IMG/VR virus record: IMGVR_UViG_2651869785_000017
Direction: 5' to 3' (one strand)
DNA from: a virus
Taxonomy: Duplodnaviria > Heunggongvirae > Uroviricota > Caudoviricetes
Length of the DNA stretch: 4,859 nt
This document shows, piece by piece, positions 389-4,724 of the stretch. A program made the position numbers and the translations under genes. The notes beneath the pieces are model-generated. The model did not search any database. It worked only from the letters and a program-made list of their open reading frames with translations, and was not told where the DNA came from. Numbering within the stretch: the first letter of the stretch is position 1; the number at the start of each line of letters is the position of its first letter.

Positions 389-465
389 TGGCGCGTTCTA
401 CTGTATTCGAACCAGTGACCGATTGCTTAGAAGGCAATTGCTCTGTCCGGCTGAGCTAACAACGC
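389..465 (-). tRNA. tRNA-Arg (anticodon UCU), argO-like, slightly imperfect
   Basis: Hand-folded cloverleaf from the reverse complement: acceptor GCGTTGT/AGAACGC (6 of 7 pairs, G6:G67 mismatch), D stem GCTC/GAGC with GG in the D loop, anticodon stem ATTGC/GCAAT, loop CTTCTAA (anticodon TCT), T arm ACTGG-TTCGAAT-ACAGT (G53:A61 mismatch), discriminator G, CCA encoded. Not run through tRNAscan-SE. Confidence 0.65.
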
Positions 466-481
466 AGGATACAGATAATGA

Positions 482-555
482 ACCGCCTTCGGGGACCCGA
501 ACTCCGCGCAACCAGCTTCGAAGGCTGGCGCTCTTTCCTGATGAGCTAATGGCGG
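482..555 (-). tRNA. tRNA-Arg-like (anticodon UCG as folded by hand), argN-like; possibly degenerate
   Basis: Reverse complement folds as acceptor CCGCCAT/AAGGCGG (6 of 7, A6:A67 mismatch), D stem GCTC/GAGC with loop ATCAGGAAA, anticodon stem CCAGC/GCTGG (perfect), loop CTTCGAA (anticodon TCG), T arm CGGAG-TTCGGGT-CCCCG (one mismatch). The 3' end is followed by TCA, not an encoded CCA. It sits 7 nt after the tRNA-Ile gene. Confidence 0.5.
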
Positions 556-1978: not shown

Positions 1979-3154
1979 ATGGATATAACTTGTTTAGAAT
2001 GTGGCAATGTTCTTGACGACCCAACTGTAGCTTGCGATAAATGCGGTGCCACGCCTCATGTTGTAGTGCTGGGCAAACAATCGTACTTTCCTATTGGTGC
2101 TGTAACAGCAAATCTTGAAAAAAATGATTCAAGAGCATTTGATTATCGATTAGGTGAAGTTTGGGATCTAAAAAATGAAGTCACATCTGAATTCATAACC
2201 AGAATTGAGAAAAAATTTAGCCGAAAAAACAAATTTCATAACTTCCTAGACTCAGATCACAACCCTTCATCCATTCCTACGATCCTAAAAAAATACATTA
2301 ATAAAAATAATGAATTCATTGATTTATCTAGAGCTATAATAGAGAAGCTTAAACATAATGCTAATAACGAATCGAGAGTTGCCCAACTTCAGGGGGGGAG
2401 CGTTGTTTTCATCCACTATAAGTCTACCGAACCAGAGGATTTGGGGAAACTTCTAATCGTAATGGTTGATAAACAAAGCGCCTATGACTTTGATTCGGAT
2501 AAGTTGACCCCAACAAGATTAAATCCAATTAATACCGATGCCTTACGGCAGGCTGCGATGTTCGATTTAACTTTATTCGAAGCCAGTTATCCAGAAAACA
2601 AGGGTGACTCATATGTACATTTCTTGCAAGGTAAATCTAAAAGCGATTTTTTCAAAGACTCATTAGGTTGCCGACATGATTCGGACAATAAAAGAAGCAT
2701 TCAGCAATTATTCAGTGCTATAGATATTTTTGCTAGTAAAAACTCACTCGGTCGTGTACTGCGTGATACTATTGACAATGAAGTTAAATCCTTACTGGAA
2801 AAAAAATCAAAAGATAAACACGGAAATAAGTCCGTTAAGATAGAGGATATTTCAAAAATAATTGACTCATGCCTGACTGATTCACACAAATGTAAGGGAA
2901 CGTTTGTCGATTTTGTTAATCTTAATGGTTTCCAGATTGACCCTCAATTTGAACCAACTCCTAAAGCAGCTGAAAGCGCGCTTACAATTGAAGTGGCAGA
3001 TAACGACAATAATTTTAAGTTGAAAATAATGCGTGGAGCTATTGGAGACGAAAAGTCAAATAAGCCTGTAATTCTCACTGACAACAAATGCGAAATTGTG
3101 ATAAAATTGAGTCAGGCAAATTATGATGAACTCAAAAGATATAGAGACAGCTAA
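1979..3154 (+). CDS. Zn-ribbon + NdpA/YejK-like (NA37 family) nucleoid-associated-protein homolog, 391 aa; cassette gene 1
   Basis: Hand-verified translation. Residues 5-22 form a CxxC-x10-CxxC zinc ribbon (CLECGNVLDDPTVACDKC). Residues ~138-228 (GGSVVFIHYKS...LLIVMVDKQ...DLTLFEASYPENKGDSYVHFLQGKSKSDFFKDSLG) align by eye with the conserved core of E. coli YejK (GGFVLFCHY...[23 protein letters not shown]). Strongly AT-rich and K/N/I-rich, unlike the flanking DNA. Confidence 0.8.
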   Translation: MDITCLECGNVLDDPTVACDKCGATPHVVVLGKQSYFPIGAVTANLEKNDSRAFDYRLGEVWDLKNEVTSEFITRIEKKFSRKNKFHNFLDSDHNPSSIPTILKKYINKNNEFIDLSRAIIEKLKHNANNESRVAQLQGGSVVFIHYKSTEPEDLGKLLIVMVDKQSAYDFDSDKLTPTRLNPINTDALRQAAMFDLTLFEASYPENKGDSYVHFLQGKSKSDFFKDSLGCRHDSDNKRSIQQLFSAIDIFASKNSLGRVLRDTIDNEVKSLLEKKSKDKHGNKSVKIEDISKIIDSCLTDSHKCKGTFVDFVNLNGFQIDPQFEPTPKAAESALTIEVADNDNNFKLKIMRGAIGDEKSNKPVILTDNKCEIVIKLSQANYDELKRYRDS

Positions 3155-3156
3155 TA

Positions 3157-4371
3157 ATGACAATTGCTGATGACTTATCAAGATTAGCGCAGATTATTAA
3201 CGGAGCCTCAAGCAGAGTTGAGGGCTACTACACTGTCATAAGTCTTGAAGAAAGCATTGTTATTGTAAATAGTTCTGAAATAATTAGACTGTTACAATCT
3301 ATAGGTTATAAAAAGGCAACAACCTGCATCGAAAATAATGAAATTTGGCTAGATCGCCAAGCTTCATCTTGGGATGACGCTATAATTTATGAGAATGTTG
3401 AGTCTTTTTGGTCTAGAGTAAACACCCAAAACGCTCTTCCGAAAAATTATATCATCGGAACGCCGTTAATACTCCCTACTTCTAAGAATGAAAGCATCGA
3501 AAAAATCCATATTTTCTTTATGTGGAAAGATATCCTTTCATTAATTGCTGATCATCATAACAGTGACTGCTCTGTCTTATTTTTCACCAATGAAGACAAA
3601 AGTTATACAGTCGAACTCACGCATTTTTTACAATATAGCGAGATTAATCGCTTATCGAACTCGTCTCTTAAATATGAAATTATAAAGGAGCTTCTCGACA
3701 CAATAAAAATCAATGATTTACACAAAAGCGAGCGCAAGCTCGTTATACGCTCAGCCATAAACGAAGTATTTAAAGCAAATGGTACGTTCAATTTCTTTGA
3801 CTTGCTTAACTCTACTGAACTCGTCAGGAAAAAATATGATGAACTATATGAGATTTACACAAAGAGGTTTTCTGTAAATAAAATTCTTAACGAACTCGAT
3901 GAGAAAAATCTTGAGTTCACGAGTAAAATTAACGAATTCATATCATCTAATCAGACAAAAGCATTGACTATTCCCGGTGCATTAATAGCTGCTGGTGGCT
4001 TAGTGAAGGCTAATGAAACAACCGAAGCAATATTGATTATCGCAGGACTTTGGATGATAAAAAAAGTCAATTACATTTCTATTGAGATATTCAATGAAAC
4101 ATTCGACAACTTACGTTCTCGAGTGGAGTCCGCTTTCGATAAGTATTTAAAGTTTGAAGAAAATAAAGAAATCAAAGATAATGCAGATAGTATTAAGAGT
4201 AGCATTACAGGTTTGATTGATAAAGCTAAAAAAAGGATGAGAACTGTTAAATATCTCGCATCAGCCATGTTTTATGGAGGCCTTATTTACGTTGGATATA
4301 AACAGTTCCCAGTCTTTTTTGAAAAATCGGCAGTAAATCTATTTTATTTTTTATGCCATACTATAAGCTAA
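3157..4371 (+). CDS. Hypothetical membrane-anchored protein, 404 aa; cassette gene 2
   Basis: ATG lies 2 nt after the gene-1 stop (TAATAATG), so likely translationally coupled. A ~270-aa N-terminal soluble region has no recognisable catalytic motif (no Walker A, HExxH or obvious nuclease motif). Hydrophobic segments at approx. 3964-4020 (ALTIPGALIAAGGLV), 4030-4070 (AILIIAGLWMI) and 4255-4300 (YLASAMFYGGLIYVGY). Same AT-rich composition as gene 1. Confidence 0.75.
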   Translation: MTIADDLSRLAQIINGASSRVEGYYTVISLEESIVIVNSSEIIRLLQSIGYKKATTCIENNEIWLDRQASSWDDAIIYENVESFWSRVNTQNALPKNYIIGTPLILPTSKNESIEKIHIFFMWKDILSLIADHHNSDCSVLFFTNEDKSYTVELTHFLQYSEINRLSNSSLKYEIIKELLDTIKINDLHKSERKLVIRSAINEVFKANGTFNFFDLLNSTELVRKKYDELYEIYTKRFSVNKILNELDEKNLEFTSKINEFISSNQTKALTIPGALIAAGGLVKANETTEAILIIAGLWMIKKVNYISIEIFNETFDNLRSRVESAFDKYLKFEENKEIKDNADSIKSSITGLIDKAKKRMRTVKYLASAMFYGGLIYVGYKQFPVFFEKSAVNLFYFLCHTIS

Positions 4372-4707
4372 CATTGCTAAACAGCCGTCAACAAACCCCA
4401 TTGCAGTTTGCAGTTCCTTCCTAATTGTGCCATCAGAGCATTTTCTCTTCTTCGCAATAGTACGTAATGAGATACCGATAACAAAGTGGGCGATGATGAG
4501 CTCATATTCCTCTGGTTTATACCTTCTCAACCGAGCCACACAACTGTCTATCATGATGCCTTCGTCATCATCACACTGAATCCGTGACTTTTTGCCATGA
4601 GGTAAAAGTCCCTTGAAACCAGCCGCTATCGGCTGCCAGTCCACTCCGCTATTGTCTGAAGCAGCCCAAGCTCCCCAACGATCCATTACTTCATACATAT
4701 CACGCAT
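4351..4707 (-). CDS. Phage antitermination protein Q (Phage_antitermQ family, QuuD-like), 118 aa
   Basis: Translation MRDMYEVMDRWGAWAASDNSGVDWQPIAAGFKGLLPHGKKSRIQCDDDEG...CSDGTIRKEL matches my recollection of the DLP12 QuuD/Q-family pattern (MRD...ERWGAWAA...IAAGFKGL...SR.QC.DDD...CSDG). ATG at 4707 has a GGAG SD 7 nt upstream; the ORF track's extra 5 codons start at an in-frame TTG at 4722. Confidence 0.85.
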   Translation of the reverse strand: MRDMYEVMDRWGAWAASDNSGVDWQPIAAGFKGLLPHGKKSRIQCDDDEGIMIDSCVARLRRYKPEEYELIIAHFVIGISLRTIAKKRKCSDGTIRKELQTAMGFVDGCLAMLAYSMA

Positions 4708-4724
4708 CAACTTTCTCCACAAAA

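Follow-up and report, generated by a model that had tools for sequence, protein, structure and literature searches.

Probable decay of the argN and argO tRNA genes in the ileZ-argN-argO operon of a non-Stx lambdoid prophage

Introduction

The stretch of DNA analysed here (hereafter the window) comprises 4,859 nucleotides of a Caudoviricetes virus, IMG/VR record IMGVR_UViG_2651869785_000017, and carries three adjacent tRNA genes. Two of these, argN and argO, are probably redundant accessory tRNA genes that undergo mutational decay under relaxed selection; both the reduced or lost function and relaxed selection as its cause are what we infer from the nature and the distribution of the changes described below. 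The argN copy of the window is probably dead or nearly so and the argO copy is probably hypomorphic. As read from its sequence the third gene, ileZ, is functional and the sole intact gene of the trio in this lineage. Decay of the window copies is at an early or intermediate stage at most.

By its layout the cluster is the ileZ-argN-argO operon of lambdoid (Stx-type) phages, first annotated in phage 933W. Phages 933W, VT2-Sakai, Min27, Stx2-II and Stx2-86 have been described to carry three tRNA genes each (PMC4631060), and the cluster also belongs to the many lambdoid prophages of STEC. The literature on ileZ, argN and argO and on prophage tRNA expression yielded nothing specific, only generic statements on the three tRNAs of Stx2 phages and on codon compensation. 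Here we explore which changes the Arg tRNA genes of the window have suffered, whether these are derived and what they are likely to cost.

Materials and methods

Candidate tRNA genes were scored by means of cmscan with the Rfam tRNA model RF00005, which has a gathering score of 29 bits. Features of phage 933W were taken from its GenBank annotation. Prophage copies of the operon were gathered from IMG/VR with ileZ and the 5' part of argN as anchors, and their tRNAs were called with ARAGORN. Nucleotide diversity was computed on 57 aligned three-tRNA loci. Folding energies were determined with ViennaRNA. Annotation by PGAP, of which the tRNA calls are made by tRNAscan-SE, was taken from the chromosome of E. 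coli FORC_069.

Results

Operon and prophage setting

Gene order, promoter and terminator (Table 1) agree with those of the annotated genes of 933W and Stx2a_WGPS2, which identifies the cluster as ileZ-argN-argO. In 933W the putative tRNA promoter pT ends 10 nt before ileZ and a rho-independent terminator is annotated after argO. Window and 933W share all three genes, their order, their place in the late region downstream of Q, the position of pT and the terminator hairpin, with identities of 76/76 for ileZ, 69/77 for argN and 74/77 for argO. The promoter consensus scan returned 3 sites in the window where 2.3 are expected by chance.

Table 1. Features of the window. Positions refer to the complete 4,859-nt stretch.
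Feature	Position	Strand	Evidence and remarks
STnc100-family sRNA	108-313	minus	RF02076, 143 bits; own terminator at 138-119; directly downstream of the tRNA terminator
Intrinsic-terminator-like hairpin, GGCTCGC-TTTT-GCGGGCT plus T-run	357-374	minus	directly 3' of argO; homologue of the 933W terminator after argO
tRNA-Arg(UCU), argO	389-465	minus	ARAGORN Arg(tct); Rfam 53.4 bits; CCA encoded
tRNA-Arg(UCG), argN, degenerate allele	479-555	minus	Rfam 43.4 bits; ARAGORN coordinates 480-556
tRNA-Ile(CAU), ileZ	563-638	minus	ARAGORN Met/Ile(cat); PGAP tRNA-Ile; tRNA-Ile2-type; Rfam 72.5 bits
Promoter-like site, TTGATT-17-TATTAT	649-677	minus	consensus scan, weak match; just 5' of ileZ; position of pT in 933W
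AraC-family HTH regulator, 237 aa	667-1380	minus	immediately 5' of ileZ
Two cargo ORFs	1979-4371	plus	between Q and the tRNAs
Q antiterminator	4351-4722	minus	lambdoid late region

The window prophage is non-Stx and the trio sits between the late antiterminator Q and nanS-p/lysis genes. Instead of stx, as in 933W, the trio is followed by the STnc100-family sRNA and a SASA/NanS-p esterase, and the gene upstream is an AraC-family regulator rather than a DNA methylase. The AraC-family gene is common to prophages of O157:H7, O145, O111 and O121 at about 94-98% identity; in Stx2a phage WGPS2 a DNA methylase gene takes its place. The wider context was derived from the chromosome of E. coli FORC_069, which is 99.7% identical to the window. 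Its prophage has the SASA/NanS-p esterase, lysis genes and a complete morphogenesis module on the downstream side, and on the upstream side replication and regulatory genes, repressor, excisionase and integrase, beside yecN. The gene set thus includes integrase, excisionase, repressor, Q, lysis, terminase, portal, capsid and tail genes, with a single small ORF frameshifted. The preliminary description of the window had named a degrading prophage as one of two possibilities, but this counterpart with its full gene set is not visibly degrading.

Codon usage of the prophage per 1000 codons is 7.9 for ATA, 6.3 for AGA, 4.6 for AGG and 5.1 for CGA. These values exceed what is typical of E. coli, with the largest excess for AGR and the smallest for CGA.

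One of the plus-strand cargo ORFs encodes a NA37/YejK-like nucleoid-associated protein of 391 aa (Pfam PF04245, E 1e-23). A Pfam search with the 404-aa protein of the other gave no match, and neither ORF had a match in a PADLOC search for defence systems. Both are ATA-rich, and PGAP splits the NA37/YejK-like ORF in FORC_069. Together they could represent a moron or form a candidate defence pair. The STnc100 family is also found just 3' of stx2B in an Stx2a phage (IMG/VR locus L122, 1417-1632) and after the tRNAs in an O157 prophage (L123), a position that we take to be the one where prophage anti-sRNAs, among them AsxR and AgvB, have been reported.

Structural defects of the tRNA genes

All three genes score above the gathering score of the tRNA model (E 8.7e-10 for argO and 4.9e-7 for argN) and are real tRNA-like genes, not chance matches. 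The two mismatches that had been described for argO, G6:G67 in the acceptor stem and G53:A61 in the T-stem, are confirmed by the non-canonical marks of cmscan and by manual numbering. The argO allele equals the family consensus with two changes, C61A (window position 404), which results in G53:A61, and C67G (position 398), which results in G6:G67; both are transversions that abolish a G-C pair. Its T-loop, UUCGAAU, has all invariant residues U54, U55, C56, R57 and A58. Three of its 77 positions differ from the 933W allele, two of these differences being pair-breaking.

The defects described for argN hold as well: an A6:A67 acceptor mismatch, one T-stem mismatch (A52:C62) and UCA in place of CCA (window 481-479), the latter preceded by discriminator U73. 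To these we add the T-loop, UUCGGGU, which has G58 where A58 is near-invariant and which had been missed. Compared with clean alleles, argN has G52A (window 503; A52:C62), A58G (497), U63C (492), U67A (488; A6:A67) and C74U (481; CCA to UCA), U63C being neutral as it results in the pair G51-C63. Eight of 77 positions differ from the 933W allele, five of which touch a pair, A58 or CCA, the neutral U63C among them.

A fully paired acceptor stem of 7 bp together with a fully paired T-stem of 5 bp, including G53-C61, is found in neither argO nor argN. Alternative pairings that would rescue G53:A61 of argO or A52:C62 of argN were looked for and none was found. Both genes keep their anticodon loops, D-arms, A20, C35 and G18G19. 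The identity set of E. coli ArgRS consists of A20, C35, U36 or G36, and A73 or G73. A20, in D-loops with GGA, C35 and the required position 36 are present in both genes, the anticodons being UCU and UCG. The discriminator of argO is a purine, G73; that of argN, U73, is not, but it occurs in every argN allele examined and is a family trait that falls outside the decay. As far as is known, all native tRNA genes of E. coli have a genome-encoded 3' CCA.

PGAP annotates both argN and argO of FORC_069 as tRNA genes and sets no pseudo flag. The argN register reported by ARAGORN and PGAP, one base upstream with an A-1:U73 pair, was rejected as an artefact: without CCA, U73 is free to pair with the A upstream, and alleles that bear CCA are all called in the normal register.

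The neighbouring ileZ gene, which had been described as perfect, is intact and identical to that of 933W, but the uppermost pair of its anticodon stem is an A27:C43 mismatch. Since the mismatch is present in 175 of 175 copies examined, it is a family trait. The ileZ of O157:H7 strain Gim1-1 (L123, 3225-3300) carries G1A, resulting in an A1:C72 mismatch and a score of 66.3 versus 72.5 bits. Decay thus appears in some lineages to have reached even this gene, the most strongly conserved of the three.

The defects are lineage-specific

In 933W, Stx2a_WGPS2 and the O104:H4 Stx2a phage phiON-2011 both Arg tRNAs have perfect cloverleaves and an encoded CCA. In the nearest relative, a prophage of O157:H7 that shares the AraC gene and is 97.5% identical in its flanks, argO is clean and argN encodes CCA. 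Judged by this comparison the window defects are derived and lineage-specific, not family traits. Conservation of the same mismatches in reference phage tRNAs, which the preliminary description had named as an observation that would speak against decay, is not what 933W and the Stx2a phages show.

The cluster is widespread, with matches in 3061 of 5426 complete E. coli genomes, at up to 13 places per genome, and in 289 phage records, mostly of Stx2 phages. Among the sampled copies, which are phylogenetically non-independent and in which STEC genomes are over-represented, the same three-gene architecture was found in 61 of 120 IMG/VR loci; argO is clean in 118 of 138 copies and of the window type in six, and the 121 copies of argN fall into 43 alleles, 67 copies being clean.

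The exact argO allele of the window occurs in 23 of the 5426 complete E. coli genomes, some of which are labelled O104:H4. Other stem variation in argO consists of G-U wobble or compensatory changes, such as C50-G64 to G50-C64 in seven copies, which indicates that the cloverleaf is normally under selection and that the argO of the window is an outlier.

For argN a stepwise series can be arranged in which haplotypes with zero, one, two, three and four defects are all found (Table 2). Some descendants add A50:C64 or U10:C25. The polarity of the series is supported by Serratia and Yersinia, where the homologous tRNA body has G52, A58, U63 and U67. Pair-breaking variants of argN are confined to two sublineages. 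The exact argN allele of the window was found in 28 complete E. coli genomes, and its A52/G58/A67 family (at most 3 mismatches from the window) is the best match in about 829 of the 1231 complete genomes that bear argN, which belong to several serotypes and are STEC-heavy.

Table 2. Series of argN haplotypes in IMG/VR copies.
Residues 52/57/58/63/67/74	Copies	Step
GGACUC	4	starting state
GGGCUC	9	A58G
AGGCUC	2	G52A
AGGCAC	31	U67A
AGGCAU	6	C74U, the state of the window

Predicted cost of the mutations

With the Rfam tRNA model clean argO scores like host tRNAs, at 70.1 bits where argU has 72.1 and argQVYZ 67.1, whereas the argO of the window reaches 53.4 bits. Clean argN of an Stx2a phage scores 55.9 bits versus 43.4 for the window copy. 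The defects therefore lower the covariance-model score by 12-17 bits. Nearest-neighbour energies predict tRNA folds poorly, the cloverleaf not being the preferred prediction for the intact ileZ either, and are only indicative here. The energy of the cloverleaf changes from -22.0 to -15.6 kcal/mol in argO; in argN, where clean alleles give -28.3 or -30.7 kcal/mol, it is -20.0 kcal/mol. The predicted loss of stability is 6-10 kcal/mol. With the same reservation, the predicted minimum-energy fold of the argN family allele has a hairpin between residues 54-58 and 63-67 (UUCGG/CCGAA), is 7 kcal/mol better than the cloverleaf and would use up the T-loop. In describing the Arg tRNAs as possibly decaying the preliminary description is supported, given changes that are derived, that are missing from 933W, other Stx2a phages and most prophage copies, and that come with these losses of score and stability.

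Constraint across the operon and the middle slot

Constraint across copies decreases in the order ileZ, argO, argN. Nucleotide diversity is 0.002 in ileZ, a value partly fixed by the search anchor, 0.014 in argO, 0.070 in argN, 0.17 in the argN-argO spacer and about 0.3 in the flanks. In IMG/VR 110 of 119 copies of ileZ are identical. The gradient fits the gain that each gene would bring to host decoding: AUA and AGA/AGG rely on scarce host tRNAs, and CGA is already read by abundant ICG tRNAs.

The middle slot is the least constrained of the three. At 31 loci ARAGORN calls only ileZ and argO, and most of these hold an unrecognisable relic of argN- or Lys-type in the gap, in which acceptor and T-arm survive but the anticodon arm has been exchanged or lost. 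By comparison of these remains, the slot decays by several independent routes. Examples are relics of about 100 nt (L012, L005 and L018 among others) that consist of the argN acceptor and part of the T-arm, the anticodon arm being replaced (…GAGCAGACGACACGATAACAGGGTTGTTGG…) or deleted; the form with the replaced arm is itself conserved in about 25 IMG/VR loci.

The argN body, with acceptor CCGCCA and the same D-arm, also occurs with other anticodons in IMG/VR (L006 7270-7502, L028, L128 and L131, for instance). It is found as Arg(UCU) in L028, Serratia and Yersinia. At about 19 loci it reads Lys(UUU), has an unusual C33 in the loop CCUUUAA and precedes Thr(UGU)-Gly(UCC). These variants look like anticodon switching on one scaffold. 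A trio of E. coli type with a defective argN and an argO with scrambled 3' acceptor is present in L132 (906-1155), a contig labelled uncultured Collinsella sp.; this cluster on a contig from a Gram-positive MAG is probably a binning contaminant.

State of argN is related to the presence of the toxin genes. All ten copies beside stx2A are clean, and 37 of 78 copies without stx are defective (Fisher p = 0.004, with relatedness ignored). A tie between the argN allele family and the AraC-regulator module was considered and rejected as the link is only partial, 21 defective copies lying in loci without the AraC gene.

Discussion

The explanation that we favour, decay of redundant accessory tRNAs, can be worded as a series of steps. 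The operon would supply decoders for AUA, CGA/CGG and AGA/AGG, codons that are commoner in the prophage than in the host. Selection on these would be relaxed because the host already decodes them, with argU and argW for AGR and ICG tRNAs for CGA, and it may be relaxed further by the additional phage copies in many carrier genomes. In most genomes with the argO of the window, argO-like sequences occur at two or three other places, strain H3 being an exception with this copy alone. argO would then have gained its two pair-breaking transversions, and argN would have been damaged by A58G, followed by G52A, U67A and finally C74U, which destroys the encoded CCA. The mutant transcripts would fold poorly into the cloverleaf, with argN preferring the hairpin that consumes the T-loop, and such misfolded transcripts would be handled poorly by RNase P, TrmA/TruB, CCA maturation and EF-Tu, leaving tRNA quality control to remove them. 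The T-loop recognised by RNase P, TrmA, TruB, the CCA-adding enzyme and EF-Tu is built by G53-C61 together with the reverse-Hoogsteen pair U54-A58. RNase P RNA pairs with C74, and where CCA is not encoded the 3' end has to be trimmed by exonucleases and CCA has to be added. Unstable tRNA precursors are polyadenylated and subsequently degraded.

Several observations count against decay: both Arg genes pass the score thresholds, both are called by ARAGORN and annotated by PGAP as ordinary tRNA genes, both keep their anticodon loops, D-arms, A20, C35 and G18G19, and the A52/G58/A67 family of argN is widespread. The wide persistence of this family could mean that the allele is tolerated or even useful. 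The term pseudo-tRNA that had been proposed as one possibility for both genes applies in part. Comparison reveals derived and uncompensated loss of structure, as in a pseudogene, but both genes remain above detection thresholds and carry no pseudo flag.

The strongest competing explanation, which we consider rather unlikely, is that argN and argO are functional although atypical, their mismatches being tolerated and the transcripts being processed and charged with Arg, with CCA added post-transcriptionally to argN, such that they decode AGR and CGA/CGG. It draws on scores above threshold and the missing pseudo flag, on the ArgRS elements A20, C35 and U/G36 in both sequences, on the intact promoter-like site and terminator, on the persistence of the argN allele family in hundreds of genomes and on the enrichment of the prophage in AGA, AGG and ATA codons. 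Functional phage tRNAs such as those of T4 can have mismatches and lack an encoded CCA, since E. coli trims ends and adds CCA; T4 relies on RNase BN of the host and on the CCA-adding enzyme to mature its tRNAs without CCA. However, what has changed are the best-conserved tertiary positions, G53-C61 and A58; each gene has in addition a 6:67 acceptor mismatch, and none of the changes is compensated. Later changes in the argN family are again pair-breaking (A50:C64, U10:C25), and with C74U the CCA is destroyed. Clean alleles are kept wherever stx2 adjoins, and the loss in score of 12-17 bits also argues against unimpaired genes.

A new, tRNA-like role is highly improbable in our view. The genes could serve as RNase P/RNase E processing punctuation of late transcripts, they could be decoys or resistant variants directed against tRNA-cleaving defence or colicin nucleases, or the argN hairpin could have been selected. 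The latter would be in accordance with the covariation A58-U63 to G58-C63 in the 54-58:63-67 hairpin, which beats 500 of 500 shuffles, and with this hairpin being the predicted minimum-energy fold. A single haplotype series, however, with U63C first (30 copies have A58/C63) and then A58G, explains the pattern at 58 and 63, and the covariation tool itself warns that related sequences often beat shuffles. We therefore rejected a selected T-region hairpin, the stepwise series lacking any G58/U63 state. The cloverleaf of argN shows no two-sided changes either, as its stems barely vary. A conflict over the anticodon loop would be expected to produce what the middle slot shows, different anticodons on one body (Arg-UCG, Arg-UCU and Lys-UUU with C33), but such nucleases act on the anticodon loop, whereas the window alleles are changed in the T-arm and acceptor stem, and nothing in the window ties the Arg genes to defence or counter-defence. 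It is equally far-fetched, though conceivable, that the middle slot is a fast-evolving cassette shaped by conflict with tRNA-targeting nucleases and that argN and argO of the window do not serve as decoders but are kept as tRNA-like decoys or processing elements.

Sequencing or assembly errors as the source of the mismatches can be practically dismissed, since complete genomes that were assembled independently have the same alleles, 23 of them for argO and 28 for argN, as do separate contigs in IMG/VR.

Among the tRNA genes of the host, argO resembles the argU type in its anticodon loop CUUCUAA, the layout of a D-arm with A20 and discriminator G73. To our knowledge K-12 has no tRNA with a UCG anticodon, which leaves argN without a host counterpart. 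The window copies share with prophage tRNA pseudogenes and relics the uncompensated loss of stem pairs, the loss of an invariant T-loop nucleotide and the loss of an encoded CCA. Relics in the argN slot of sister prophages escape tRNA finders, whereas the window copies are recognisable, score above thresholds and have intact anticodon arms.

The cluster has been known since the 933W genome, and decay of prophage cargo at the level of alleles is an ordinary, expected process. Nevertheless, pipelines call argN and argO ordinary tRNAs although they are probably hypomorphic or dead, so counts of extra rare-codon tRNAs in STEC/EAEC genomes would be inflated. The clearly unequal constraint, with ileZ above argO and argO above argN, fits what each gene adds to the decoding capacity of the host. 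Stx2 phages keep clean copies and resident non-Stx prophages often do not, which hints that these tRNAs may matter mainly in productive phage growth or toxin expression.
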